A stretch of DNA of 64,000 nucleotides from Chlorokybus atmophyticus. Its lineage: Eukaryota > Plantae > Mesostigma and Chlorokybus algae. The stretch lies in NCBI GenBank assembly GCA_009103225.1, contig RHPI01001715.1, positions 196,606 to 260,605 of the forward strand, read 5' to 3'. Positions 30,626-50,234 of the stretch are shown piece after piece; positions within the stretch are counted from its first letter, which is position 1; every line of letters starts with the position of its first letter. The position numbers and the translations under genes are program-made. The notes under the pieces are model-generated. The model did no database searches. It was not told the DNA's origin and worked only from the letters and a program-made list of their open reading frames with translations.

Positions 30626-32475
30626 CTATGAATGCCGTTGCTGGAAGTCTTGCATCAGCTCAATCAGCTTGTCAACTCCAGCAACAGGCATAGCATTGTA
30701 TATCGATGCGCGCACGCCTCCCACAGAGCGATGGCCCTTCAGGGAGGACAGGCCAGCCTTGGAAGCTTCCGCAAGGAATGCCTTCTCCAACTCAGGGGTT
30801 GCCATGGTGAATGGCACATTCATCATGGAGCGCACTTCTTTTGCAACGGGGCACTTGTAAAAGCCGTTGCTGCCCTCAATGGCATCATACAGCTTCTGGG
30901 CCTTGGTCTCATTGATCTTCTGCACTGCCTCGATGCCACCTTTCTTCAGAAGGTGCTCAAATACGAGGCCGCAGGTGTAGATGCTGTAAGTGGAAGGCGT
31001 GTTGTACAAGGACTCGTTGTCCGCCATGGTTTTGTAGTCCAACATGACTGGCGTGTACGGCCGAGCTTTGCCCAGCAGGTCGTCGCGCACGATGACCACT
31101 GTGACACCAGCTGCGCCAATGTTCTTCTGCGCGCCAGCGTAGATGATGCCAAACTTGGACACGTCAATGGGCTTTGAGCAGAAATTTGATGACATGTCAG
31201 CCACCAAGCACTTGTGCTCGGGATAGTCCTTGAACTCAACACCCTGTATGGTCTCATTCGCGCAAATGTGCAGATAGGTAGCATCTGAGCTGAGGTTCCA
31301 TTCGCTCTTGGGCGGGATGTTGGTGAACTTGCCAGGCTTGCCAGTGGCAACAACATTTACCTACAGCCAAGCAACCAAGTCAGTAACGGTGGAAGCATAT
31401 GAGTGCGAGCGCACACACGCATTCATACATGCACCCGCATGCACACATGCGCGTGGGTGTACGAGGGTGCAAAGGCACGCGCGTACATGCATGCTACGCC
31501 TGCGTGCTAAGATACACGCACACACTCGCATATGCACCCATGCACACTCGAACACAAACATACAAGCACACAGACATGCAAGCTTTTGAAGAACCGAGCA
31601 CCTTGCAATACTTGTTTGCCTCCTCAACACCCTTAACACTCCACGAGCCGGTAACAAGGTAATCCACGGTGTCGTCTTTGGCAGTGATGTTGAGGGGAAC
31701 AGCGGCGAACTGCGTGGTGGCGCCGCCCTGCAGGAACAGCACCTTGTAGTTGTCCGGAATGGACAACAGCGTGCGCAAGTCCACCTCCGCCTTCTGAATG
31801 ATGGAGGTGAACTCCTTCCCCCTGTGGCTCATCTCCATCACGGACATGCCGCTACCTCTCCAGTTGAGCATCTCCTCCTGCACATGCATGTGTGTCTCAT
31901 CAGAGAGGTTCGTTGCTTGGTAAGGTGGCAACAGTGAAAGAACTGCAATGCTTGACATACTTTTCTGATTACTACGCACATGCCATGAGTAGCATTTGCA
32001 GCCACAGAGCAAATACTAACTTGCGCATGACGCTATGCCACAGCTGCCCTATGGGCAGGGCTGCCTTTAGCTTGCCATTCAACGCAACGGCAAGCTGAAG
32101 GGCGGATAGACAACTGGCAAGTAGCGAAAAAACAGAAAATGCATGCTTTCTTGTTTGCATGCGTGCACCCACCTGAGCCTGTAGCAGCACTTCGACGGGC
32201 AGGCAGGCAGGCCCAGCGGAGAAGTTGTACACGCGCTGGTGCTGTTCGTATAGGGCGGCGGTGTGAGCGTCGCTGTCGTCATCCCGGGAGGCGGCAACCT
32301 GCTCCCGCGGCGCAGCCACAGCACACCTGGTGATGGTTGCTGTTCTGTCCGCGGACCGCACCACCTTGGGCACCCTTACAGCCAGCGACGCTGCGCTCTG
32401 CTGCTTGCTGCTGCCCAGCTCAAGGCGAGAGCCGGTAGCATACCCACCACGCACGACCCGCGCCGCCGCCTGCAT
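30626..32475 (-). CDS. PSAT1: Phosphoserine aminotransferase, plastid-targeted
   Basis: A transit peptide precedes [50 protein letters not shown] and [20 protein letters not shown] at 30626-30628. Confidence 0.97.
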
Positions 32476-33079
32476 GGCTGCCAGCTCTCACCACCAACGC
32501 AACAGCCGCCGCTGCCGCCGCCGCCGCTTTGGTGCGTAACAAACTGCAGTAAATTGCGAATGTTGCAACGTTCTGTGGGTTTTGAGGAAACCTCCGTTTG
32601 TATTGGTGGTTTCGCATAATTGTGTGCACAAGGCGCACAAGCGGACTTGTGCATGTGTGTACGATCTCGTGGTAGAACGACGGCTCGCTGATCACGCTGG
32701 ACCCACCTAGGTGAGCATTGCATGGGTTCATGCATGCTTGTGCATGTGTGTGAGTGCGTTTACTCGGGATCAACAAAGATTTGAGAGGAGCAAAATGAAG
32801 GACTGCCTAGACTTCAGGCCTTTTAGTCGGCGAAGTTGTGGAGCATAGCTTGTTTCAGAAAGGCTCCCAGTGCTCAAGCTGCTTGCCATTGCTGATGGTC
32901 GTGCGTGTGATGAAGCACTGGCCGACGCAGTCCGTCAGGTTTATTCTAGGTTTATTCTTGTTCGTTGTGCATGAGCACAGTATTTGCTTAGGGGCATGCG
33001 CCACACAGCTATGTTTCAACAATGTGCGCGTGGACGTTGCTTGCTTTCTGTAATGTTTCAGCAGTCATTATAGTGCAAT

Positions 33080-34900
33080 TAGCCGAGATTTGCCAGCAAA
33101 GCAACCAGGTCACTTATGGTCATTGAAAAAAGCATTTGAGTATGGCGCTGCGCTATGCGTGTGCACGCAAACTCCCAGCTGGTTACGTATGTGCAGCTTG
33201 TTATCACACTGTGCAACACACGCACTGTATCGTCAACAGCACGAACGCACTTTTGTGCAATGTTCCTCGAGGCTAACACTCCATACAAACTGCTTCGTGG
33301 CGTAAGTCAGGTCGCTCGTGCATGCGGTGTGTTGTCCAGACTAACATTGCTACTTCTCACACACATAGATGCAACATCTTGCTAGCATGTACAATAGAAA
33401 AAATGTCGCTGAGGCTCCTACTCTGGAACGGATCAGCCTGTGCAGTACAGCTAAGCTAGACAACAGCCTGGAGCTACCCACGCTGTTGAGAAGCTACACT
33501 TGCAGCTGTTGTTTGACGGATTGTGTAGTCAGGACATGTGTGCTTACTGCACCAGCTGCGCAGGGTGATAGTGATGACTGATGACAAGGCTGCAACTACC
33601 AGGGACGGTTGTGATTGAGCCCGCCAGTGATGAAGATTACTGTTGTAATATTCCTCCAAGCAAGCCAGCACGTCAATCCGCGGCCAGCCACATACACAGG
33701 CCTGGCATTGGTGCTGGGGTCATTCGGTCAATCCTCACGCATGGCGCAAACTCAAGCGGCCGCGCAAGCAACGAGCTCAGGCAAATAGGCACCTGCAAAG
33801 CGCTTACGGGCATTGTAACTGCTTGCTTGCATGTTCCGGAAACCCTGGACCCCGCTTCAAGCGCTGCCAAGGTAGTGTTGTATGCGCAAGTCACGATTGT
33901 CGCTGTTTTCACTTTTGATATGCTGTGCACAATTTTGGCTATGTAGTCGTCAAGTGCCTCTGCAGCTGTAGCTGCTTGCGAAGTTCGGCTGCAAGCACAC
34001 CAACTCAAGTAGAAAGAACTTGAAGAGCATGCGTGTGATTATAAGTCAAGCATGTGTGCGTGCATGCACATATGTGCGTGCACTGTGGCATGCGTAGCAT
34101 TGCGAGGGGATGTGCACACATATGCATATGCGTGCGCATGCATGTGGGCCAGCATGCGTATGTGGGTGCATGGGTGCATGCGTGACATAGCCAGCCACCT
34201 GACCTTGTGTTGACAACCAATGAGCCAGTAGCTAATTGATTGTCTAATGCTCGTCGCCCAACACCAGTGGGTGCCATCAGTTGATTTATCATGTTGCATG
34301 ATATGTCTTGTTGTTCATCGGCACAGTCGTTTGGCTCTCCTCCGAAGGCTCGTGCGTTGTTCCATACATCCAGCACAGCGAAGCACAAGGACTCCATTGC
34401 TGTGGCCGGCACTGCCACTGCTAATGAAGGTAATCGTCTCCAGCTCGGACCATCATGAATACAACCTTACTATCACGCTATGACATTTGCAGCACAGAGC
34501 GTGACAAGTGACACTGCACTTCAACTCTCCTGTGAATGCAGCACTCGTCAACAACCGGAGAGGTCTGCATTTGTAAGTGTACACACTCGCATACACATGG
34601 ATATATGCAGACGCCCCACACGCCCCACACACCCAAACATACACGTTGACCCGTCCAGCAATTGGCGTACTTGTGGCAACTCAGCACGGCCCGAAGCGTA
34701 CTTAATTCTTTCTTCATTCAAGGCCACTCGTACACGTTGCAACAATAAACTTTGCCATTTACTTTTGGTTCAAGTTCATGATGGAGGTGACGACCTCCGT
34801 CACGAGGGCTTCCTCGCAATCGAGGACGTCCTCCTGAGCCTGCTTGTCGCTGCCTGCAATGTTACTTTTGGACTGTTGGGTTTGCCGTTGGCTTGAGTGG
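33080..34900 (-). pseudogene. Degraded, unidentified spliced ORF fragments
   Basis: Protein-like fragments (QEDVLDCEEALVTEVVTSIMNLNQK; AEALDDYIAKIVHSISKVK) are separated by intron-like CA/TG tracts. No family was recognised. Confidence 0.25.
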
Positions 34901-34907
34901 ACTGACG

Positions 34908-35075
34908 CAGACGGCCGCAGGCCGAGAGTGGTTGTCAGTGGCACTAACCGGCCGAGAGTTGTCAATCAGTTACCCTTTGGTCGATGTGCACAGACGGCCG
35001 TTGGCCGGTAGTTACGGACAGCTGACAGAAATAGCCGGCAGCTTCTTTACCGTTACACTGCTGTTAATATGTGAC
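34908..35075. repeat. Imperfect ~83-bp tandem repeat, candidate left subterminal region
   Basis: CAGACGGCCG occurs at 34908 and 34991, and GGCCGAGAGT occurs twice. The rest of the unit is only partly similar. Confidence 0.4.
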
Positions 35076-35334
35076 CCTTGCCGTTTGACAAAAGTTGGCA
35101 ATTCTTGCCGTAAGCCAACACCAACATGCCATGCAGCTTGTACAAACCTTGGACTGATTGTTTGGTCTTGCACCTAAAAGCCCACAATATATACAATGTA
35201 CGGGCAGTGGTGAGAGTATGTCCACTTACAACTGAGCAGCCGACTTGCGCATGAAACTATCCTATAACATTGAGTCTAGCTGTCGGACTCATGCGCAGCT
35301 TGTCAACCCGTGGTGCCTGCCTTAGAACTCCTCC

Positions 35335-36189
35335 TCAAACCCCCTCCTCCTGTTCCTCCTCCGACGAGTCTTCTGCTTCAACGCCGGAGTCATCTTCATC
35401 CGCTGCCTCGCTCGCTGACAGTACAGCGGCTACTTCGTCCTTCAGCTTGAATGTCAGCGCCTCGCCGTGCACGCGCATGCGCTTGATGGTCGCTTTGAGA
35501 GTGACCACCTGCATTTGGTAATGCTGTAAGAGTGGCGTGCTGCCAGAGGACTAGCCCATCAGCATACACATGCTTACCTCGTCTTCCGCTTTGTTGCACT
35601 CCGCCAGGCAGACAGTCAGCCTGCCGCGCTGCTCTTGGTTCACTCTGACCAACATGGCAATCTGCAAGCATACTGCTTAATTACCGCTGGAAACATTAAA
35701 CTAGGTCATAGATTACCCGTTCGTTTGACTCCGCAGCTTCTCTTTTGCGACTTGTGAGCTCCCGCAAGTAGAAATAGGCTGTGCATTTGCGCGATTGGTC
35801 ATGCTGTTCATGTGCATGACATTGGAGGTTGTGCATGAGGTTGTGCATGTCGTATTGACAATGTATGTCAAGTGCAAGATACTTGAGGCTGTGCATGTGC
35901 AAGATAAAAGAACTCTAGCATGTGGCATTGACAGTGCATCGTAACCCACCTTGGTTATGCCAGTCTTGTTTCGTCCCTTCAATCATGTCGCCATGGTCGC
36001 AATGTTGGTGGGTCGGATTTTCTTACAGGCAGTATTGTGGTGTGTCTTTGCCCACTCGGAGGGGGAGCCCTGTAAGATATTGCCCGAGTCACTGTTGTCA
36101 TTGGATGTGCCCTTGGTAGTCTTGGTGGGGTTTGACACCGAGGACACCCCTCCGGCACCCTGCCCGCCCTGTGCGAACATGGAATTCAT
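35335..36189 (-). pseudogene. Unknown spliced element ORF with acidic C-terminus and one in-frame TGA
   Basis: It reads MNSMFAQGG...MAT*LKGRNKTGITK|HDQSRKCTAYFYLREL...ESNER|IAMLVRVNQEQ...AEDE|VVTLKATIKRM...EEEQEEGV*. The exons join in phase 0 over GT-AG introns. Confidence 0.55.
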
Positions 36190-36350
36190 CCCGGACCTCG
36201 ACCACAATGCCCACTACGCCCCTGGCAGCGCCGCCAACGATCTCCCAAACGCCACATACCCTTGGCATCACGCCCCTGTAAGGGCATAGCTTGGCGGAGC
36301 TATCAATGGTGTTTTCATGCGCAGGGGGACTGACATTGCCAGAGTTGTCA

Positions 36351-36549
36351 ATGGTACGAACTGCCATTGCCATTGTACAAAGGTACCATTTCAATGGTAC
36401 CTGTGTACAATGCCTATACCTTTTGGCAAAGGCATCTTCGTACCATTGAAACGGTTCAATCAGAATATATATGTATATATAAATATTCAGAGACTCACCC
36501 TGGACGTGCAATGGCTCGATCGTACCATTATAATGGTACGACGGAGCCA
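36351..36549. promoter_or_regulatory. Cluster of GTACCAT/ATGGTAC sites in a divergent intergenic region
   Basis: Paired palindromes GGTACCATT-TC-AATGGTACC (36382-36401) and TCGTACCATTATAATGGTACGA (36520-36541), with half-sites at 36351 and 36438. The regulatory role is inferred. Confidence 0.6.
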
Positions 36550-36615
36550 GTGACTGGCGGCCAAGTTTCCCGCCTCTGGCATGCAAGGGTAGCGGTAGCG
36601 GTGGCGGTGGCATGG

Positions 36616-39600
36616 ATGGCGGCGGCGGCGGCGGCGGCGGCGGGTGTGCGTGTTGCTGGATATGATGCAGGTTACATTGGCGACACCTGTGTCGACGCTA
36701 TTAGTGAGATATGGGAGTCCTTTCTCCGTTTTGCCATGCGCTTCGCCACACGCAGCTCGGTCTACATGCACATCATTAGCAGCAGGGTGTGCAAGCAAAC
36801 CAAGCTGTATGTCGGCCAGCGTCCATTACAGTTCGATGCGGGTCATGTTGAACCGCGGAGTTCGATCCAGGATGCGCACATGCTTGATGCTGAAGGATTC
36901 CTCTAGGAGACACACGCACAGCAGCAACAGGAGGAGGAGGAAGCGAACGATGGCTTTGTGTGCGTGTGCCTGAGAAACCTGTGGCACGCCAACATGGAAG
37001 TGGAGGCGTCCCTTCGCACGCGTCGGAATCAAGGTGGTATGGCTCGGAGCATGCTCTTGCAGTGGCATTCGTGCAGTGCAACAACGGCCAAGGCCTGTCG
37101 GCCTCCGACATGGGGCGGATCATCAAGTGCATCCGAAATGCACACTTCCTGACGGAAGAGCTCCAGTGGGAGACCGGTGTGCATGCGGCCAGCTACCTCC
37201 GGACCACAGTTGCTTTCTCTCAGTCTGAAGTGTGTTCACGGTGTGCGGTGCATGTGCTTCAACCATCAGAGCCTTGTCACATATGCACATGCGAGTGTGC
37301 TGCCGTATCAGAACTACGTGACGGCTGACCTGCGCAAGCCTGGAGACCCTGAGGATCAGGACATCTGCGTCACATATATGCCGGCCAAGGTCTGTGAAAT
37401 GCAGTACCTAATGCAGTATCGATGCAGTATCTATTCTGAGGCCAGCATAGTAAGTAATGCTCTTGGTCGGATCAGGTATGGCTCGCGCGGTTGTATGGCA
37501 ATCCACATGCCGCCAATGGCTTCAATCTCCAGTACACTGGTGACGAGCACAGCTTTGGCCATCCTTCCACGGGCGATTGGTGGAAGGATGTGGAGGTGGA
37601 TTTGAGGAGAGAGGTGGGGGAAGCGTCCTACTTGGCGCCTGCCATTCTGTACAGTGACAAGACCACGCTGGACAGCGCGGGCAAGCGCTCTGGCTACCCT
37701 CTGATGGCATCGCTTGCCAACTACAGTTGGGACATGTATGCTAGCAACATGGGGGTTGTTATGATAGCGCTTCTGCCGGTGGTTCACGCAGTGGCCGGGC
37801 ATCCCACCTGGGCGCATGGCAAGGAATCGTTCTCCATTCGGAAACGTGAGATTTTTCATGACGCTTTGAATGTTGTGTTAGGGGATGTGAAGCGGGCGAG
37901 TTGGGAAGGTCTGCAGCTCATCGACCCGAATGGCATCGAGCGTCGTGTGTTTCCCGCGCTTGCCAACTACATCAGCGATTTGCAGGTAGTGGGCATGAAT
38001 GGTTGTAACCGGATGCAGCCCGCCAGCAAACAGTGCATGGAGGAAGTTGTCAGTAGACCATCTGAGTTTGTCGTGTTGTAGGAGACTGCCACACTCGCAC
38101 GCACTGTGTCGGGCAACCAAACACGACATCTTTGCGATGTTTGTCTCGTCACCAAATCAGATCTGTTGGAGATGGATGAGGACCGGGAATTGAGAACCGA
38201 GGCCTTCTACACACCAGCAATACGTCAGCTGCGGGCGGACCTGCATAGCGGTGTTAGGAATGCTTGCCACACAGCCAAGGCTTTCAAAGAGCAGCACTCC
38301 ATGCATGTCGAGGAGGTAATGGTCATATTACTGGCATTCGTGAGGATGAATGGCTTTCCGTGAAACCAGGCAATGTGGTTTGGCAACAGAATGCACTGTG
38401 GGGTTGGCGACAGTCGCGGGTGCCGGGAGCTGACTGCTACTCTCGTCTTGCCCCTGACGCAATGCATGTGCTGGGAGGCATCATTGACCACCTGCTTGCT
38501 GCTGTGTACGACGCCGCGAAGGAACGAATGCGTCCATCCACGAGACAAATTCTGCAGGCCAGGCACGTCTTTGGTGTTGCTTTTGTGTTGAACACAAAAG
38601 CCAACAACACGTGCTCACGAGCAGATGTGCACAGGCTGAATGCATGCAAAGCGACTCTGCGGGTTTCGCACTTTAAGGCACCCACAAGCACAGTAGATTT
38701 CTTCCTGTCCGACCACTCCTTTCAGGTGGTGGAGAAAGTGGCGGTGCTGCAGCTGCTGCCGGTCCTCGCAGACGGTTTGCTGCTCGACAGTGAGGGCAAC
38801 GATTTCTTCACCATTGCTGCCGCATCGCTTGCCCAGTGGAACAAGAAGTTGCTGAAGGCGCATGAACACACAAGAGAGACCCTAACCGCAGCCGACAACG
38901 AGCTGGCTGCCTTCAAAGCTGCAGTGCTGCATCCGCTACTGTCGTCATATTCTGCACAGAAGTCAGGTTGAAAGATCGAGAAGATGCATCAGCTCACTCA
39001 TTTTGGGCCGGCAATTGTCAGCAGTGGACACCCAGATTGGTTCAGCGCCAACCGCATGGAGCAGACGCACGCCCAAAATATCAAACGGTGGGCGCGTGGT
39101 GGCAACAACCGGGACTACCAGGCACGTATCCTGAAGGCATGGAGCTGTGCGGAATATGTGAGAGAGGATGGCATGGTCGTGGATCCCGAGATGCGCTCGG
39201 TCATGGCGCAGGCGCGGCAGCAGTGCTGTAATGTCATGGAGAAGACGGACAAGTTGCTACGGATGGATGTGCTGACAAGGAGGGAGTCCAGCCCGTACTG
39301 GAGCGGATCTGCGCGTAGCCGCCAAGTCGCCTTGAAGACTCCATTTGCCGACAAGCTGCCTGCCACCCTGGACAGCTGGTTGAGGAGGGAACAACTGTAG
39401 TTAGCCGACGGGTGGCGTGCTGTTCGCGTGGTGAACGGAGGCGCAGCGGTGTACATGACATCAGGAGTCAGCATGGCGCGCGCAACTGGGATGTTCCATG
39501 GGCGGCCTTGGTTCTCTACACTTGAGTTGGAAGGTGATGAGGACGGTGTGAACGTGACGTGGTGGGCTCAGGCACTCCTTTTTCTGCGCGTGGTGGTGTG

Positions 39601-39847
39601 GGGTGGTAGCGGCGAGCGCGTGTGGAAGGAGGTCGTGTTTGTCCGCTGGTACACGAAGCTGGATGTGACGAGCGACACAAAGTGCATCGCTCTGGAATGG
39701 GAAAAGCGTCGAGGCGGTCCACATCTCGATGTCGTGACTCTGGAGCAAGTAAAAGGCATTGTCCAGCTGCTCCCCATGTTTGACAAGGACAGCGCCCGTG
39801 TACAAGAGGGCAAGTATTGGGTGAACGTTCACTGCACTTCCACGTGA
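36616..39847 (+). pseudogene. Plavaka-family transposase, spliced, with in-frame nonsense codons
   Basis: Motifs LAPAILYSDKTTLDSAGKRSGYPLMASLAN, FHDALNVVLG...GLQLIDPNGIERRVFPALANYISDLQ|E, CDVC, PDAMHVLGGIIDHL, KIEKMHQLTHF...G...FSANRMEQTH and a C-terminal FHGRPWFS...FVRWY...IVQLLPMF...YWVN match the Plavaka pattern. In-frame TGA at 38969 and TAG at 39398, probably also TAG at 36904. Confidence 0.85.
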
Positions 39848-40050
39848 CACATGTACTTGTTCCACTACTCTGAGTTTGGAGCATATCAGTCAGTTAGGCA
39901 TTGCTAATTGTATGCTAAGACTTTTGCATGTGGACGTGCACAATACCGGGCAGCTGTCACTGCACAACTGTCACCACAAACGAATGATCCATGCAACATT
40001 CAACAATCAGTCCGCCGTGTGGCATTAAGCATCAATACAGTGCACCACAC

Positions 40051-41801
40051 TTAAGCCTCATAGTACCATGACACAGGAGGGTAGTCACAGCGCATATCCA
40101 TTGTTTCAAGCATGAGACGCCGTATGCACTCCGCCATTGCGGGAGGAACTGCATTCGATATGGAAACGGCCGAGGTCATCCATGGCACTCCCAGCGCTGT
40201 TTGCCACGCAGCAATGCCGCCCCTGGTGCTTGGAAGGCCATAGATCGGGTACATCTGCTGTGGCGCAGTTGATGTCACGATTGTCTTCTTCGCGCTAGCG
40301 GACAAGTGCGGCGATAGCAGTCCAACTGCCTTGCCCGCGTGCGAGCAGCGTGCTGGTGGGGTAGCTACCACTGGCTGTGTCTCAAACAGACGGTGTCGGA
40401 AAGTTGATAGGCCAAACATCGTGCCACAAAGGGACAAATTGGGTCTGAATGAGGAAGCTGCTCCTGGCACATTCTCAATCACAAACTGGACCTGGCTTGC
40501 AAGCAGCAGACGTCGGACGAGCGGCATCATATCCTGGTGTCTCTAGGATGTGCCATGTGCCACCCGTTGAGGTGCCGGGATAGCACCTGAATAGGCCTGG
40601 CATGGTGGACTGGCCCAGATGAGCTCGTACTCGCTCAGCTCTCCTGCACTCAGGGTGCATACATCGCGGTGTATGAAGGGCAGCGGGTACTCAGAGGAGG
40701 GACTTATGTCCATCCCGGTCACGTCAAAGCCTGCGTGGTATAGACCGACACTGGCACCGCCACCGCCGCAGAATAGGTCGAGTGCCCTTGGTCTGCGTGT
40801 GCGTCCCAGCTTGTTGTCAAATGGCGTGTATGTGGTCAAGGCTGGCCGTGGTGCTGGCCAGGGACTAACAATGATGCCGTCCGGGCTTACTTTGCGACTG
40901 ACGTTCTCCCCTCCGGCGCGCAGAACATGGCGTGCCCCGTCAACTGATGTGTACGCGAATACGTTGTGCCCTTTGAAGTTGATGGTTTGTGGTCGATCAC
41001 CGTCATCGAATACTATACGGTGCTGCCCTGCAAAGACATTTTCCATTGCACCATGCATATATGATGCGTCCTCAATCTCGCACGCCACGAAGCGATGCTG
41101 ACCTGACGCTTGCTTGAATGATTCCACAACGCCCGCATACCATTCCCCATCCAGCGGCCAATGCACCATGACACTCACACCGATCAGCTGCTCGCATCCC
41201 AACTTAACTGCGTTCCGCAGCCGATGCAGTGCGCTGTCCAACGGTTGATGGTCTGCCTTCTCTACAGCGGCCAGGGGATGGAATTGCCCATGCCCACACC
41301 GTGCAAGACTGCTCTGAATGCGACAACAGCTTCAACATGCATGAAATAAGCATACGCCCAACATAACATGCAGTGATACGTCGCGGTCCACTCTTGTGGA
41401 TTACCTCCACAGCATCCACCACCTGTCCACTAACCACATGTCCCGGTGTTGTCCATGTGAAGAAGCGCATGGGTTCCGCTCGCCACTCGAAGCATGAGCG
41501 CGAGCACGATTCGCACACGCACGCAATGGAAAAACTCGGGTTCCTTGCACAGCACTTGGCCGAGGCGGCAGCCAAACACGTCGACATTGTGTGTGGTGTG
41601 ATGCCAGCAAGCAGCACTAAAACCGTGGCACACTGTCTGCACTCGCTGGCATTCGGTCAAGTGTGCTCGCATTTGCTGCCTACGGCCATTGGCACATACG
41701 TACGCATTGCATTGTGGGCACACCAAGCATGGTCTCCTAGGTGAGGGTGATTCAACTGCTGCCGCCGACATCTTGCAATAGGAATCGGCACGGCTGCCCA
41801 C
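40051..41801 (-). pseudogene. Tudor domain fused to a small phage/actinobacterial-type C5 DNA cytosine methyltransferase; one in-frame TAG
   Basis: Tudor: LIGVSVMVHWPLDGEWYAGVVESFKQASG|QHRIVFDDGD after removing a 75-nt intron at 41028-41102. MTase motifs: I RALDLFCGGGG, IV WASPPCQAYS, VI FVIENVPG, LCGTMFGL, VIII RHRLFE and X SNAVPPAMAE. TAG 40543-40545 is in frame with the downstream ORF. Exons upstream of about 41340 are uncertain. Confidence 0.85.
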
Positions 41802-41907
41802 AAACTGAGCGAGACTTTAGGGTATAGGCATCAATTGGGGGTTGCCAGCTTACGAACCCTAAATGGGTCAAACTTCAAGTGAAGCACGACTGTACCTTAT
41901 ACGCTAT

Positions 41908-41948
41908 TGCAGTACCATGCATGGTACTGCATCAACATGAATGGTACT
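41908..41948. promoter_or_regulatory. GTACCAT-GC-ATGGTAC palindrome upstream of the methyltransferase gene
   Basis: A perfect 24-bp palindrome TGCAGTACCATGCATGGTACTGCA (41908-41931) plus a half-site AATGGTAC at about 41940. Confidence 0.6.
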
Positions 41949-42122
41949 CCATCTGTTAATGGTGCTACAGTACAAGGATACTCGCATACTACCACGATCG
42001 TAGAGTAATACTGTGCTGTCATGCCATGGAACCCAGAGCGCTGTCCGAGTTTATTGCTGTCAACCACGCTCAAAACCAGCGAGGTATGCAAGCCATGCAC
42101 TGACTCATGCGCCGGGCAGTCA

Positions 42123-43019
42123 TCATACACATGTACAGCCAATGCTTCTAAAACAGCAGATATCTGGTGCACCATGCACCATGCTGCAACTATACATGTA
42201 CCTACATGGTTCACAAGCGTTCAACACAAAACTACAGAACATGCACAATTGGCATTTAGGCGGGGGCCAAATTACCGCCGACACGTTGGCGTCTTGCATC
42301 AGGCGTGGCGACCAAAACGGGTGAGGTTGCTTGCAGAATGGACACGCTTGTAGATTCTTTGATTTATTTGCCACAGTCTTCTGATGTGCTATGATGCAGA
42401 CATGGCACATCGCTTTCTTGCAACAGGGCGTCTCCCCATCCGCTGGGGGGGGTGGCTCTTCAATGCGACAAATCAGCACACATGGTGCACGCGGGTGTGC
42501 AAGCTGCCTCTGCCACCAAACTCTGTTATCGCGTCGCAGGCGTAGCGACTCCCATCTGAATGGCGCAGCATAACGCTCCACTGCCTGCTCGATCACCTGA
42601 CGCCCATCTGCCGCCATACACCACCTGCTGGTCTTGGTGGTCTCGTCCAGCATGCGTTCATCCAGGCCCTCGACATGGCTGTCGTCACTCGTGTACTCCC
42701 CCGCATCGTCATTTTCTTCGAGCTTCCACAGAATCAGCTCGACGTGCCGTATGACATACAGCCACTGCCAGCCAAAGCATGCCAAATACAGCTCGAATGG
42801 TTTTACTTACCACCCAGTATGTTTGCTCAGGTAGTGGCACACATCTCGACCCGCATCAGTCGACATCGACAGGTACATCTGCTGCAGCAGGTCGAAGTTC
42901 TGCTCCGCGGATAGCTCTTGCACATTGCCGGGGTGCTGCGGCAGCAACAACACCATCATATCGAGGACGGCGAGGGGCAACAACGTACTACGGATGGCCA
43001 TATCGTGTATGGGTTCCAA
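42123..43019 (-). CDS. RING-type zinc-finger ORF (element cargo; probably the 3' part of the OTU gene)
   Basis: CVLICRIEEPPPPADGETPCCKKAMCHVCII...ACPFCK shows RING-like Cys spacing. An upstream exon ends KHTGW at a GTAAGT donor. Confidence 0.6.
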
Positions 43020-43428
43020 TCACGGCCAATCCCCAGAGGTCTGTTTAGACCGCATTCTCCGCGTTTGCTCCCACTTATTGCAAACTTTCGTCACCCACCT
43101 CGAGGCATGCCGCATGCGGTGATGCAGCGCGTCTTGAGCGCTGTAGGGTGATCAACTCCTTTGCACTACGAGTCAGCCCCTCAAAGCGTCTGCGCGTCGG
43201 TGCTTTTGAGCTTAGGCAGCTCGTGCCGCTCCGGCTGTCTCTCTGGACAATGCTGAGCAGCCACTTGACGCTGTAAACCAAATGTACTTACTGTGCCTAC
43301 TGTGCCTACTCAGAACACACAGTCAGCCCCAGTGAGGCTTCGAGGCGCTGTGCTTCTTTCAACGTTGTAAAGATGCCTCACCTTTCCTTTTTTGGTCATG
43401 TCAGCGTCCTTTGTGACAACAACCTTCC

Positions 43429-44808
43429 TTATTTTTTGTCAACCTGCACATCCTGGCAGGCGCTCTCCGTGGCACTGTTACTCAGAGGAGGTAAGGCGTT
43501 ATCTTCTTGCTCCACAGCCTTGCGCTTGTTGGTTGCCTCCCGTTCCTCCACGACCTCATGTTGCTTCATGAGGTCGAGCATGAAGCCTTTGTCTTTCAGC
43601 GCAGCTTTCAGAACACCTCGATCAATCTCTTTACCAACAAGACAGGCTGGGATCAATGTGGCAAGCTTAGTGGGAGAGGGCGAGCTACAGCTGCTTCTTG
43701 ATGGAGCTGCCTCCGGATGGTCAGAGTGCGGTGGCAAGTGAGTCTCCGCGGCAGGAAGGGAGGGTGCTGAATTGTTATTGCGAGCATGTGGCTGTGGTTG
43801 AGGGGAGGCAGGATGTGCAGAACACTCGGCTACTTCTTGCCTAGCACACAAAGGCGAGGCCTGAGGCATTGGCGCAGCACTTTGGGTCACAACCGGTGGT
43901 AGCGGGGAATTGGCAACGCCATTCCGCCACTCTCCGATCAGGTGTGTTACCTCCGGTGGCACTTCATGCATAGGCCACGACCACTGTTTGGTGCTTGCAG
44001 GCTTAAGGAGCCAACAGTGTCATTCTTGCTCATTAGGAGCAGTGTTGCCTACCACCAGGACTGAGTTGGGGGCTTTTTTATTTCCAACCCAAACTGCGCT
44101 GCCGGGCCGTGGCACCCACTCCCCATGCTCGCGCTGAACGGTCACGCAGCCAATTAACAAGCCCAGCTTGTTGGCAAACATGGTCATCTGCAGGTGCTCG
44201 ACGTACACATCTTTTCTCCGCACGATCTGTCGCACCTTGGCCATGGCTAGGTTAATGTTGCAATTGACATCAGCCAACATGGTCGCAGGCAGTTTGTCGT
44301 AATACTGCGCTATCTCTCCCGCGGCACCAGTGGCTCTGCAGAAGTCTAAGATTCTGCTCGCCACGCGTGCATCGACAGCCTTGGCGGTGACTTTGCGGAG
44401 AGTGTCCCCCCTGCCGTCGTCGCCCATAGTGTCCAGCATGGCCCAAAATTTGCTCGAGCTGGGGCACTTGTGATCATCCAGGACACTATGCGCTATGGAT
44501 GGCCTGGCGCGAAATACACAATGGTAGAAACAATTACCATCCGTCGGCGTATTGAAGTGGTCCCATGAGGCGAGCTGGCCACCTAGCATAACTGATGGCC
44601 GTATGCGGGTTGCGGCCAGCTCCTCTAATGACTCGCTGGCAGGTGGTGACCCCTGCTGCATGCGCATACAGCACTCAAATGGTGTGTCCAACCGTGGACG
44701 GCAAGAGTCACAGTGACTGATAAAGTACCTGAGTTTGGGGCAGACTGCCGGCTTCAACTTGCAGCGGGTGGGGTAAGGTAGGTGCAGAAGCCACATCGGT
44801 TGTTGCAT
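43429..44808 (-). pseudogene. OTU-like cysteine protease/deubiquitinase domain plus Pro-rich linker; in-frame TGA
   Basis: Catalytic-type motif TPTDGNCFYHCV and helix YVEHLQMTMFANKLGLLIGCV. TGA 44020-44022 is followed in frame by HCWLL (putative catalytic His) and by ORF 43429-43971. Confidence 0.65.
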
Positions 44809-45589
44809 TGTGCTGTGGTCTCACCGGTGGCGGCAAGAAAGATTGTTGCCCCGCAACCATCGGTGCTGCTCGTGGAGGAGATGGCAGTGCATTAAGGATC
44901 GGTGCCGCGGAAGGTGGTTGCGCTCTGGATCACAGACTCGTCACGGAGCTCGTGAGCCATGGGCACATCATGCGCCACTGCCCCAATGGACATGTCGGGA
45001 TTCAACAGGCCAACATGCATGTTAAACTGATGCCGCATTGCCGCCACGCCCATCAGCAAGTGGGATTGAAGGACCAGTTGATGGGATTGAATCCAGGCTT
45101 GCATAAGAGCTCCAGCAGGACCTAGTGCACTGTGGTGCTGTCAACCAATCACATGTGGGTTAGCTGCATGCTTGCGACACTGCAATTGCAATAGTCAACT
45201 GCATCACACCGTCATCTGTTGGTTGCTTCGAACAGTCACCTGCGGCATTGCTGGTTGATGCACGAATGATTGCATGGTCTGCGTCATTGCTGGTTGATGC
45301 ACTATGGGTTGAATGCCGGACGAATGGCCACGCGCTCCTGTGCTCAAACCTAGCCTACTTCGTTCGTCACGCGCGCGCGACTTCGCACGCTCACGCACAT
45401 CTTAGCATGCAAAGGTAGGCATGCATTGGAGGTGCATGCAGTCAACATGCACAGCGAGATTGGCAACAACATACCGCCGCCCAGCTCTGTCTATCTGCTC
45501 TGGCTTCCGCAATGTCGGCTTGACTGTAGGGTGGGTATGGGTGAATAGTGGAGGCCTGCAGCCACGCTACATATATCACATGGACTGCG

Positions 45590-45925
45590 CTAAAAAACCA
45601 ATTGCTCTTGCAAGGAAAAGCATGTGACTATTGAGCGTACCGCTGCATTCCTTTGTGCTTGTTCCCACACCCGCAAATGGTCCCGCATGGTTCTAACAAG
45701 GGGCTCCAAGGACTGCAGCTCCTGACCCACTTCTTGTTGCAGAAAGCGAGCCACCAAGCAGCTCTCTGTGTGAAGATGGTCTTTAATGGCTTGCCTGCTG
45801 GTTTGTCCAATGTTGGTGATGCATGTTGGACAGCCCCATTGCTGACGCCTGCCATGATCCATGACGTGGCGCCCGGTAGTAGCTGGCTTCGCTGCTTGAA
45901 CTCTTACGACCACAACTTCTCGCAA
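45590..45925 (-). CDS. Putative zinc-finger-containing 5' exon of the OTU/RING gene
   Basis: WGCPTCITNIGQTSRQAIKDHLHTESC has C2HC-like spacing. Its linkage to the downstream exons is not established. Confidence 0.3.
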   Translation of the reverse strand: MREVVVVRVQAAKPATTGRHVMDHGRRQQWGCPTCITNIGQTSRQAIKDHLHTESCLVARFLQQEVGQELQSLEPLVRTMRDHLRVWEQAQRNAAVRSIVTCFSLQEQLVF

Positions 45926-45934
45926 GATGTGCCA

Positions 45935-45966
<32 letters not shown>

Positions 45967-46123
45967 ACTCCTGGTCCTCCGCCTCCTAGTCGAACCCAGG
46001 CCCACTATGCTTGACATTCGACCCGTCATCGACCTGGTGCCCCTGCGTGCCATCGTCCGGCCATCAATGAAGCGTGTTTGGGTGAGTGCACGCTAAATCC
46101 CATTTGGGCTGATCGAGCAATGC

Positions 46124-46278
46124 CTCTGTCGTACCATGAATGGTACGACAGAGCCATGGTATGGCAATGGCTAGGGTTGGACGAGAGATGCCTCTGTCGT
46201 ACCATAAATGTTACGACACATCCTTGTTACCAATGGTTGTACGAAGCATGGATGGCACGAAAGCATAAGTCGTACCAT
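46124..46278. promoter_or_regulatory. Cluster of GTACCAT/ATGGTAC sites in a divergent intergenic region
   Basis: A perfect inverted repeat CTCTGTCGTACCAT-GA-ATGGTACGACAGAG (46124-46153), an imperfect copy at about 46190-46218 and a half-site at about 46270. Confidence 0.6.
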
Positions 46279-46459
46279 CATCCACAGGAGCAAGGCTGCA
46301 CTACAAGTGCGACTCTAGTGCGGGACACTAAACGTTTGAACCGCCTCATTTTCGTTTTCGCGCCTCGTACATTCGGGCGGGCCAACCGGCGGCGACAGCG
46401 TTGGAGGCGGCAGCGCCACTATCAGCTAAACAGGCGGCACCCGACTATCAGTTAAAAAG

Positions 46460-48279
46460 ATGCCTCGTGGTCCATCCGTAGGTGCACCTCGTCGTGGAGG
46501 TCGGCGCCAGTTGTTCACATTGCCCGCAGTGTTCAACCAGGCAACCGTCGCCAACCAATCGCAGCAAGACCCCGCGCTAACGCCCAGCACATCACAACAA
46601 CTCCACCTGACACCGCAGTCGCAAGGGCAAGCTCGACGGCATGCGTTCTTGATGCACTGTGCACGTTGCTTCTTGCTCAACTACTAACTTGGATGCTTGC
46701 TTCTTTCATAACTGGCATAGTGACTCACTGCGTGCTTTCTGGATACACTGTGCACGTTGTTCTTCTTTCGCAACTATGAGGGTTGCATCTTTCATGGCTG
46801 GCAGCATGACTCATGTGGTTGTGCTTGCAGAGGGTCGATTGGAACCCCCAACCCAAACGCATTTGGCCGTGACGTGGCAACTTCGGCCGTCAGCAACCCT
46901 TCCCCAAGTAAGTGGAAGATTGGCAACGAGGTAAGCACTGTGTGACACTGTGACACTGTGTGTATGTGTGTAACGGATTGTTTTTGTGTGGACAGCATTT
47001 GCGAGATGCCGTCGTTGAAATCATAAACGGCCACTGGGTAGAGAGCCACGTTTATCCCAAAGAGGACACTATTCGTAATGTCATATGTCAGGTGCTGTGA
47101 ATGCTTCATGACCGCACTACACCGTGACACTGACAACCTGCCCGTGACAGGTAGTTGGCTTCGACCATGACGACGAGGCCGATGCGGCCAAGTTCTATGA
47201 GGTGTACTCGACTCCCAAGGAGTGCCCCTTCCACTAGAATGTCGCCTTGAAGAAAGCTACGCAGGTCCGGTCTGAGAACGTCACCAAGATCAAGCATATA
47301 CTTGAGAAGGAGTACAAGTGGACAATGTTTAACAGCAACAAGCGCAAGTGAGTTGGGTCCCTCACCACCATGTCTGCTATGCAACACTCTTACTCAGCCT
47401 CCATACACACGTACGCATCTCGCCTATCTTAACCGATTCAATCAGGCACATCGACGCCCTAATGGACCCCGAGACTTAAAGCCCAGATGCGCAACGCGCT
47501 CCAAAGTAAGTCACATGCACTATTTTAGCCTGGTGCAGGCTCAACTTGAACTATTTATATCGTGACTAATGCCTTGTTGGTATAACTGTCGCAGACAAGT
47601 CATGGCGGAGATTTGAGGTGACCGACAATGCAAACACGGAGCGGAGGAGATACATCTATGAATGGGGCAATCCCATAATCTGGCAAATGATCGTGCAATG
47701 CTGGTCTTACGCCGTCACTACACTTGGTCGCCGGCAGCTGACAGTCAACCACCTCGCATACCTGTTGCTTACAGTGAGCACTCTGAACTCCATCATTAGC
47801 AATTCAAGCATGCTGTAGCCCCAAACTACAGGCTTGCAGACGCGTTGCAGTGAATAGTGGCTTTTGATGCCACTAACACATGCCTGTAAACTACGCAGAT
47901 GGAGCGCATCCTAAAGGGCAAGGATGGAGACCCTCTCCTAGCTGCCAGCATCGACACACATGAAGAGTACCTCAGCGAAATCAACACCATGATCATGTCA
48001 ATGAAGCGGGAGATGAGGCAACGGTACGCAGCCCTCTAGCCATTCACCCTTGTGAAACGTCGCACTGCATCTTGTGTCGAATACCTAAAAGATCCCAATC
48101 GGCGCCGGCCGCAAGAGACAGCAGCTCGTGACCCACTCGCTGAGGCAGAAGCGGCATTTGATTGGCTGGCACAACCGTTTAAAGAGGAAGAGCAAGCTCC
48201 GGCATCTCCTCCACAGGCCCCAGCGCGTGGTGCTTTGTTCCATGATGACGAGCAAGGCAATGATGAAGAGGAGCTGTAG
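46460..48279 (+). pseudogene. Unknown multi-exon element ORF (possible accessory/TnpA-like protein) with three in-frame stops
   Basis: Exons SKWKIGNE|HLRDAVVEIINGHW...ICQ|VVGFDHDDEAD...NKR and a last exon MERILKGKDGD...DEEEL are joined over GT-AG introns. In-frame stops are TAG 47235, TAA 47477 and TAG 48037. Confidence 0.6.
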
Positions 48280-48622
48280 CGCAGCTGGTAGTCCGTTTAG
48301 CTGGTAGTGTACATAGCTACAAGGCTTTTGTGACTGAGTGTTGTGCATCTTAAACCAGCTCAGTCAATCGTCATTATGCTCATGCATGTCAATACTTGCA
48401 TCCCTATGATATACAACAGAACTGCATTCGAGTCACATCATCGAACTACAAGCCTTGACAAGTGACTGAGGAACAATGTACACATTTCAGGTACATGTAC
48501 ATTGTACAGGCACATAACAATGCTGGCAGTCAGTGACAGTCGCGTGTAGTCAAGATATGCAAATACATATGATGACAGTTAAGCATTAATCACCTTCAGT
48601 TGTTAAAGAATGCCTTATTTTG

Positions 48623-48993
48623 TCGATAATTACCTAGTTGGTGCTTGTGAACTAGGCTTGGTCGCCTGCGCTGGACTGGTGTGTAACCTGCAGGTGCCTG
48701 TCACATAGGCTGAGTCACCTAAGTAAGACTGATGTGTAATTTGCAAGTGCATGCTAATGAGGTGTAGTCGTCTGTTAACGCTTGATGTGTAACTTACAGG
48801 TGCCCGTTAATTAGTTGTAGTCACCTGTTAAGGCCTGATGTGTAACTAACAGGTGCCTGTTAAGTATCCAATGTCACCTGCTAAGGCCTGATAGGTAACT
48901 AACAGGCGCCTGTTAATTAGGCATAGTCAATAGTTAAAGACTGAATTGTAACGAAAAGGGCCTGATAGTAACGGAAGTTGTTTTCAGGTCCCT
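48623..48993. repeat. 53-bp tandem array (about 6-7 units) with palindromic core, candidate right subterminal repeat
   Basis: Units start at 48676, 48729, 48782, 48835, 48888 and 48941, with a degenerate one at 48623. The core is TAACAGG-N2-CCTGTTA. Confidence 0.9.
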
Positions 48994-49390
48994 GTATCGA
49001 GATTACAGGTGGACTGAGCCACGACAGTCTAGATTAGTATCCTCAGGTGCACGGTTGTTGCCAATATCTAGTCGGCTGGCAGGGAAAACGTATTGCGACG
49101 ATTGCAAATACTAAGACCTCAATTACTTCTTCGCGCAGTCTCCCACGAATGATGTTGCTGCCCTTCCCCGTGGCTGTCGCCGACATCAACGTCAATCCCA
49201 TTGCCCTCGGCATGACTCATCCAGCAGCGTCGGCGTCGTCCACCTCGTGCCGAGCTTTAAGCTATACCCCTTGCTCTTTAATTGTCACACACGCATGCAT
49301 GTTGGCATCGTGTGACTACTGCGGTGCTATCTGTGGCAATGCGTGCGACAAATCCACAGACATTGCATGGTGCAAGTGTCCGTGCGCACG

Positions 49391-50234
49391 CATGTTTGCT
49401 TAGGTGCTTATGTGCGCGCGTGTGTGAGGGAAGGGTTATAAGCCGAACACAGTCGATCTGGCTGGACAAGGACGAGCGCGAGTACAGGATTGGTGTGCTT
49501 CTGCAGCACATGGCCTGATTGAGAAGGCTATGAAAAGCGAAGGCGCACTTAATATGGAAGCTTATCGCATGGGCTGGCCTGACGCTCAATTGCAGCCGCA
49601 CAATTGTCAACGATGGAGAAGGTAACCAACTTGCAGCATGCAACTTTGAGCTTGCAAATGAGCACAACTCAAGAACACAACAAGTATGTGTGAGAATGAG
49701 TGCGCGTGTGCATGCGCGCACTCGTACGTGTGAAGCAGTAAAAGAAAGTACAAGCATTTAATAGCAATAGCAAGTGTGCTTGGAGCTTGCATAGAAAGTG
49801 GTAATGCATTCAACTCGGTAGAAGTAGAAGCCTCCAATGGTCTTAGACATGTGCGTGCACCTGCGCATGCACGCGCGCGCTCACATGTGTTTGCTTAGGT
49901 GCTTATATATGCACGTGTTTGTGGGCAGGGTTATAAGCCGATTACAGTTGATCTGGTTGAGGACAAGGACAAGCGCAAGTACAGGATTAGTGTGCTCCTG
50001 CAACTGATGGCGAACCTGATAGAGAAGGCTGTGGAGAGTGAAGGCGGTGCCTCAATGCAACACTTGATATGGAAACAAGCTCACGTGTCGGGAACGGATG
50101 AAGGCAGGTTGTGTACACTCATGAAATGTTGTTCTATTTACTTGATATGGACACACAAAGGGCTTTTAGGATGGAAGGGTAACAAGGGGATTGTTGCCTG
50201 CCAAGTGTGCAGCTGTAAAGGCGACGAGATGTAA
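49391..50234 (+). pseudogene. Tandemly duplicated (period about 495 bp) degenerate intron-plus-exon unit
   Basis: TGTTTGCTTAGGTGCTTAT...GGGTTATAAGCCGA occurs at about 49393 and 49888. Copy 2 encodes GYKPITVDLVEDKDKRKYRISVLLQLMANLIEKAVESEGG, and copy 1 is frameshifted. Confidence 0.55.

Follow-up and report, generated by a model that had tools for sequence, protein, structure and literature searches.

A copy of a ~14-kb Plavaka transposon in the green alga Chlorokybus atmophyticus carries as cargo the gene of a compact, phage-type C5 cytosine methyltransferase, which in its predicted spliced form is fused to a Tudor domain predicted to read histone marks and preceded by a Cys-rich region. The copy lies in a window of 64,000 nucleotides (contig RHPI01001715.1 of assembly GCA_009103225.1, positions 196,606 to 260,605; all coordinates below are those of the window) and is dead, but related copies are free of its break, and the element is therefore likely able to methylate DNA in marked chromatin, its own being the probable target. 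An original prediction had described the Tudor-methyltransferase fusion; beyond it, the present analysis finds that the premature TAG in the gene is specific to the window copy and that the gene is Plavaka cargo, and adds a predicted second intron (41314-41404) with a Cys-rich exon.

The transposon and its setting

The element was delimited by its coverage in contigs from public runs, of which X1 and X2 represent one sample, X3 comes from another study and X4 covers little. In X1-X3 (three of the four runs) depth is even from 34833 to about 49100 and zero at 33000-34133 and 49443-50000, defining a copy of ~14.3 kb (34833..49100); contigs with about 10% divergence are also present in X2 and X3, contig depth in the runs not being equivalent to copy number. 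The empty flanks could alternatively reflect a different strain rather than an insertion. The same loose letters precede 34833 in both X1 and X3, and the left end is probably truncated, while the right end is estimated at 49080-49150, close to a subterminal array of five 53-nt tandem repeats (48640..48904). Terminal inverted repeats of the Plavaka form (TGT..ACA or CATCA..TGATG) were not found between the two end regions, nor were target site duplications of 2-3 bp; TGATG is present at 49150 and CATCA is absent from 34601-35100.

The window is nuclear DNA, and the element is flanked by spliced green-lineage host genes within 2.4 and 8 kb, namely phosphoserine aminotransferase at 30629-32487, whose top match is the Arabidopsis chloroplast enzyme (341 bits vs 270 for the next), and VAC14 at 57-61 kb of the window. 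One X4 contig touches both element flanks (34709-34814 and 49232-49490), which hints at insertion into an older repeat or gene, the joined sides being short and one of them 26 nt. Beyond the right end, an exon-like pair (49381-49514 and 49876-50011) is duplicated, 495 nt apart and 81-86% alike. Over the whole window, CC/GG is low on a single-strand count (about 0.6-0.8), CG is low too, and TG/CA is high.

The transposase gene (36894..39847, plus strand, start approximate) is spliced and matches PF18759 with an E-value of 4.6e-23 (82.4 bits, cut-off 26.3). Its product holds the motifs by which Plavaka (CMCT) transposases are defined in the available text of PMC12730594, the DDE, C(2)C and H(3-4)H motifs: D in YSDKT (37650), D in YISDL (37968), C(2)C in CDVC (38133), H(3)H in KMHQLTH (38981) and E in MEQTH (39056). 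The gene is broken in the window copy by an in-frame TGA at 38969 and a TAG at 39398, and a search with the transposase found no relatives in viral sequences. The methyltransferase gene and the transposase gene are arranged tail to tail, and a single X1 contig of 2521 nt runs without a gap from the end of the transposase gene through the enzyme to the Tudor domain.

A palindrome, GTACCAT-N2-ATGGTAC, is located at 41912..41927, ahead of the methyltransferase gene and ~140 nt from its predicted ATG, and sister palindromes with spacers of N2..4 occur at 36383 and 36522, both before the transposase, and at 46131. These four matches in the window all fall within the element, compared with none in 100 shuffles. 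The half-sites GTACCAT/ATGGTAC cluster at 36351-36548, 41912-41947 and 46131-46278, ahead of element genes, with 14 of the 22 half-sites of the window falling in the element; the clusters may serve as binding sites for a protein encoded by the element.

Other parts of the element also look coding. A further cargo frame, weakly assigned, runs on the minus strand at 44023..44820 and has no Pfam match, but contains at about 44540 a DGNCFYHC motif, which we take to be OTU-protease-like and which PDB entry 7y5m matches weakly (E 0.57). The minus-strand region 42126-44820 also holds a proline-rich stretch and, near 42300-42560, a Cys-rich RING/PHD-like stretch without family match. Additional coding-looking frames at 45593-45985 (minus), 47100-48300 (plus) and 35338-35550 (minus) show a CxxC...H..C stretch as well as acidic and coiled stretches.

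It is very unlikely that the methyltransferase gene is instead part of an endogenous giant-virus fragment, or a domesticated host gene, that merely lies beside a Plavaka transposase. Such an arrangement has a parallel in Amoebidium, where the available text of PMC11244446 describes gene clusters that simply have Plavaka transposases at their sides, and it would fit with the lack of detected ends and target site duplications and with a sister-clade member of the enzyme on a giant-virus MAG contig (see below). However, the unit covered by the runs holds both genes and ends on both sides, the same palindrome precedes both genes, the host genes on either side are of the green lineage, and no viral core gene was seen among the frames of the element.

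Structure of the methyltransferase gene

On the minus strand a frame runs from 41331 to a stop at 40051-40053, with a TAG at 40543-40545 as its sole interruption. Its larger part, exon 3 (40051..41027), encodes the second half of the Tudor domain with its FDDGD motif, a stretch of 81 residues without methionine that extends to motif I of the enzyme, and the compact C5 methyltransferase. Exon 2 (41103..41313) encodes the end of the Cys-rich region (CGHGQFHP), a linker helix and the first half of the Tudor domain, the last recognized by its match to 7DE9. Between them lies the predicted intron 2 (41028..41102; 75 nt, phase 1, stop-free), which splits the Tudor domain, contains in-frame ATGs at 41058 and 41046, and with its borders CAG/GTCAGC...TTTGCAG/G resembles the host introns of the phosphoserine aminotransferase gene. 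Near-repeats flank this intron in the region 41020-41110, CAGGTCAGCATCG and CAGGGCAGCACCG, each reading GQHR, as would be expected if the intron had been born by duplication of a proto-splice site.

Upstream, intron 1 (41314..41404, 91 nt, GAG/GTAATC...TTCAG) is predicted from splice-site fit and from the frame link to exon 1 (41405..41771), whose translation supplies the ATG and a Cys/His-rich region. The exon 1 prediction rests on this splice-site fit and one 5-nt indel; the Cys/His-rich region is likely zinc-binding, and no family match to it was found in Pfam and other searches. The predicted spliced product comprises 519 residues in the order Cys-rich region, Tudor domain, C5 methyltransferase, with unknown letters at the 41518 indel and the TAG as the sole obstacle. 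The splicing of both introns is predicted from sequence, no splice joint at either intron having been seen in the four runs X1-X4, of which X4 is RNA by guess only.

Tudor domain

A phmmer search of the PDB returned six matches to the Tudor region, of which that to 7DE9, the Tudor domain of RDM15, is the sole significant one (E 2.2e-5), whereas the Tudor of 53BP1 was matched in two weak pieces, one on each side of the 75-nt insert. Pfam detected no Tudor domain in the unspliced frame or in its halves, and a single-sequence fold of the unspliced Tudor was poor (pLDDT 53) and yielded no Tudor. The structure 7DE9 represents RDM15 bound to H3K4me1 by a cage of W616, Y623 and Y641 and the acids D643 and D645, with an H3R2 pocket formed by E647 and Q654 (available text of PMC8184781). 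After the predicted splice, W (at 41160), Y (seven residues further), F, D and D of the window protein match the offsets of the three cage residues and both aspartates, in the register set by the 7DE9 phmmer alignment. Of 81 GT..AG cuts that start in the Tudor stretch, intron 2 is the one that restores this spacing, bearing out the earlier claim that removal of a 75-nt intron reveals a Tudor domain upstream of the enzyme. The domain is thus most similar in structure-based sequence comparison to the RDM15/PDS5C and MSH6 Tudors, but differs from RDM15 in its third cage residue (F), in the E647/Q654 positions, which are P and G, and in its fusion to a transposon enzyme. The H3R2 pocket is therefore lost and specificity for H3K4me1 is not to be assumed, while binding of methyl-lysine is predicted for this PDS5/MSH6/RDM15-type Tudor with its cage intact.

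We consider it improbable that the Tudor domain and the enzyme are made separately, with the 75-nt stretch retained, translation starting at 41046 or 41058, a reader-less enzyme as the product and the Tudor half left as a separate or relic exon. The two in-frame ATGs in a stop-free stretch would permit this; spliced RNA was not seen, and a 153-nt X4 contig of depth 3, taken as RNA only by guess, continues for 16 nt beyond the donor site. In addition, a Tudor domain was found, at E under 0.04, in none of 286 relatives. Against separate proteins, only the intron 2 cut rebuilds a gap-free Tudor domain, whose second half lies in the enzyme exon, and the splice sites are of host type. The diverged contigs argue in the same direction: 7 of 9 exonic variants are synonymous (p 0.001-0.003 against an expectation of 25-29%), the synonymous ones comprising five in exon 3 and two in exon 2, and both variants inside intron 2 fall at codon positions 1-2. 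These counts are small and come from a few low-depth contigs, in tables showing 40 rows out of 60 and 40 out of 402. The single frame, the 81 residues without methionine and the synonymous variants on both sides of intron 2 together point to one protein with both domains.

Methyltransferase domain

The enzyme motifs start on the minus strand at 40782 (I, LDLFCGGGG), 40611 (IV, SPPCQ), 40479 (VI, IENV), 40401 (VIII, FRHRLFE) and 40155 (X, NAVPP). All the motifs named in the original prediction of a compact enzyme were thus located in order, and motifs I, IV (PC), VI (ENV), VIII (RxR) and X in this order place the protein in PF00145. The family profile (25.6 bits, cut-off 22) and the DNA methyltransferase family phrog_363 (E 3e-26) agree with this assignment, as does a structural model built with 117 relatives, which folds as a Rossmann-like C5 methyltransferase and reaches pLDDT 85-98 for the greater part of the enzyme. 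Without exception, the 118 aligned proteins keep the catalytic cysteine (C244), ENV, RxR and the prolines of motif X, and the enzyme is predicted to write 5mC. Ratios of CG, CC and CHG words revealed no clear difference between element and flanks, and no target motif emerged.

Structural alignments gave identities of 12-19% to DNMT1, DNMT3, MET1 and DNMT2, no canonical DNMT chain was present among the 11 PDB sequence matches at E<=10, and Pfam detected no BAH, RFD, PWWP-ADD or SNF2 domain in the window protein. Among 1486 matches, the best 20 of the 120 listed are 33-46% identical to the enzyme. By affinity and architecture, its sequence is not of the canonical eukaryotic DNMT1, CMT, DNMT3, DRM or DNMT5 type, in line with the earlier view of a compact phage- or actinobacterial-type enzyme distinct from DNMT1, CMT and DRM.

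The relatives of the enzyme fall into several groups. The compact family includes actinophage genes annotated as DNA methyltransferase (179 records), and these compact actinophage-type enzymes (PHROG 363) share with the window enzyme the LCGxMF-RHRxFE block and the W...AxPP end, but in the phage forms have neither reader nor intron. The top matches carry a methyl-CpG-binding domain (MBD, PF01429) inserted in the variable region, and one such cluster includes Klebsormidium nitens GAQ92615.1; the MBD, present for example in P0003, P0006, P0124 and P0144, is absent from the window enzyme, which has the SPDG and DYPP end motifs in common with this algal group. A second group has a longer insert, and one of its members comes from a contig of a giant-virus MAG (L160). 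A careful tree of 48 selected rows, rooted at the midpoint, places the enzyme in a 25-row clade with the MBD-inserted and long-insert groups (support 99/97), from which compact bacterial and phage forms, including those of actinophages, are excluded; a quick tree of 120 rows gave the same grouping (SH-aLRT 93). The sister group differs between the trees, being on the MBD side with 93/71 or on the long-insert side with 85. Of the phylogenetic check proposed earlier, the placement in a clade with algal and giant-virus enzymes was obtained, the canonical DNMTs being compared outside the trees, by structural alignment.

Three side observations concern these relatives. The proteins P0003-P0007, P0012, P0014, P0124 and P0144 form a phage-type C5 subfamily with the MBD in the variable region (methyl-read, methyl-write); a search for this subfamily in viral and metagenome contigs gave, among the matches listed, ones of compact length only. 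Klebsormidium GAQ92615.1 is annotated only as a hypothetical or MBD protein and stands beside a HIT-hydrolase-like frame. P0137 and P0138 are compact C5 enzymes of the pithovirus type, with either another C5 methyltransferase or an AlkB-type 2OG dioxygenase as fusion partner.

The original prediction also held that a prokaryotic or viral methyltransferase had been captured. The phage-type enzyme, the host-type introns and the caged Tudor domain support a capture, but the nearest kin are algal and giant-virus enzymes rather than phage genes, so that the capture probably took place via eukaryotic viruses or algal mobile DNA. No Tudor fusion was found in the best 120 of 1486 matches of near length, in the 4 matches among 2317 longer candidates, in the best 150 of 2991 representatives, where the query ended at the TAG, among 69 candidates for the Tudor region, or in the 286 relatives named above. 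These negatives are weak because the libraries call intron-containing eukaryotic genes poorly.

Decay of the window copy

The premature TAG (40543..40545, minus strand) is found in the window copy only, and the other copies have TGG (Trp). In the runs, C at 40544 accounts for 7.2 of 7.2 depth in X1, 101.6 of 107.1 in X2 and 137.3 of 143.1 in X3, and tryptophan occupies this column in 16 of 20 aligned relatives. From TGG in X1-X3 it follows that the window copy has decayed, whereas the frame of the family is open at that codon. Reassignment of TAG as an amino acid codon is out, given the TGG in other copies and a 244-codon host exon that reads normally. The window also lacks 5 nt at 41518 relative to the other copies (X1-X3), resulting in a frameshift in exon 1. 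Over 39900-41408 it differs from the X1 contig at 20 places, with no new stop among the 19 checkable.

Comparison of the window with X1 gave A>G/T>C at 160 places as against C>T/G>A at 65 (p 2e-10), and 19 of 28 listed A>G/T>C places are in a CG or CHG context vs 42% expected (p 0.005). We infer that this bias is the pattern of methylation-driven deamination and that the stop may be one such change.

There is a slim chance that the fusion is a passive passenger and that no copy existing today has catalytic activity or a function. The stop and frameshift of the window copy and the lack of expression in the runs examined are compatible with idleness, as is the statement in the available text of PMC12344493 that silence is common among orphan DNMTs derived from viruses. 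However, the main form in three runs has tryptophan at the stop, the checkable differences introduce no new stop, exonic variants are biased toward synonymous change, and the catalytic and cage residues are intact, all of which argue against this reading.

Proposed mechanism

With confidence slightly better than even, we propose that the spliced 519-residue protein docks on methyl-lysine nucleosomes and adds methyl groups to cytosines close by, those of the element itself being the most probable targets. A compact phage-type enzyme would have reached algae via giant viruses or other mobile DNA, and the element would have fused it to a host Tudor domain of the PDS5/MSH6/RDM15 type. H3K4me1 marks transcribed gene bodies in plants. 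A transcribed copy of the element may likewise gain a low-methyl lysine mark to which the Tudor domain could bind, with the Cys-rich part and/or the GTACCAT palindromes giving preference to the element. Writing of 5mC there would tune or disguise the element's own chromatin. Host CG/CHG methylation and deamination may later have killed the window copy, the stop corresponding to a C-to-T change in a CAG context. It is by analogy only that self rather than host is proposed as the target.

The same protein aimed at host chromatin, so that gene bodies with H3K4me1 or insertion sites receive 5mC, is an unlikely alternative on present evidence; the 5mC would then damp host defence genes, mark targets or add to gene-body methylation. 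H3K4me1 marks plant gene bodies and is read by PDS5/MSH6 Tudors (available text of bioRxiv 10.1101/2024.10.15.618488), the cage and both aspartates are kept, and the Tudor domain alone would confer no element specificity. On the other hand, genome-wide methylation of host genes would be mutagenic and costly, and specificity for the element could come from the shared palindromes and the Cys-rich exon.

Comparison with known systems

The following comparisons draw on the available portions of the cited sources. Plavaka elements are present in green algae (PMC13519894), and the giant Plavaka elements of red algae (17-19 kb) carry accessory genes PAG1-3, among whose products are a 2OG oxygenase and a methylase of the adenine type that is joined to SET (bioRxiv 10.1101/2025.02.11.637652). 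They resemble the present element in their size, in having several cargo genes, in the fusion of a methylase to a chromatin domain and in inverted repeats beside a cargo gene, but in PAG2 a SET writer accompanies an adenine-type enzyme of PF01555, whereas the window protein combines a PF00145 C5 enzyme with a Tudor reader, and does so in a green alga. Fungal Plavaka/CMCT elements carry TET/JBP (PMC12730594) and thus also own a cytosine-modifying enzyme; these oxidize and erase 5mC, whereas the window enzyme would write it and has a predicted histone reader.

Mobile elements encoding C5 methyltransferases, proposed to methylate themselves, are known among retrotransposons, with SymbioLINE-Dnmt, SymbioDIRS-Dnmt3 and the Klebsormidium Dnmt3 elements (PMC5890265), and in the viral Mariner-1_OLpv (PMC3627910). 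Their enzymes are DNMT3-like or of other types, in contrast to the predicted spliced reader fusion in a nuclear cut-and-paste element, and the word 'tudor' occurs 0 times in the main text of PMC5890265. Orphan eukaryotic DNMTs are generally without companion domains and ChloroDNMTs often have a PWWP (PMC12344493), while fusions of readers with transposons have been surveyed in bioRxiv 10.1101/2021.11.30.470311. No description of a Tudor-C5 methyltransferase in a DNA transposon was found among the matches listed in full-text literature searches.

A parallel in design is the bdelloid N4CMT, a host gene of bacterial origin described as 'histone-read, DNA-write' (PMC8885841), in which a methyltransferase of prokaryotic type, gained by horizontal transfer, is likewise joined to a histone reader. 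N4CMT writes 4mC, reads silent marks by a chromodomain and silences transposons, whereas the window protein is predicted to write 5mC, has a Tudor domain of the active-mark type and is owned by the transposon. It is conceivable, although we think it rather doubtful, that the transposon assembled a histone-read, DNA-write enzyme for itself, with a C5 methyltransferase of viral type as the writer and a host domain for an active mark (H3K4me1) as the reader, and so places 5mC on transcribed chromatin, in mirror-image fashion to N4CMT and CMT; this viral enzyme lineage, having gained an MBD separately in other algae, would then have been rewired twice, and such elements would be a possible source of gene-body-type methylation in green algae.

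Transposons are known to carry erasers (TET), histone writers (SET) and bare DNMTs, and new, as judged from our searches, is a transposon-owned reader-writer that would link a histone mark to 5mC. It provides a ~230-residue C5 enzyme supplied with a natural targeting module, points to a route by which new eukaryotic DNMT architectures may arise, from phage-type enzyme through giant virus and algal transposon to reader fusion, and makes it possible to test directly if mobile elements use chromatin state to direct DNA methylation.
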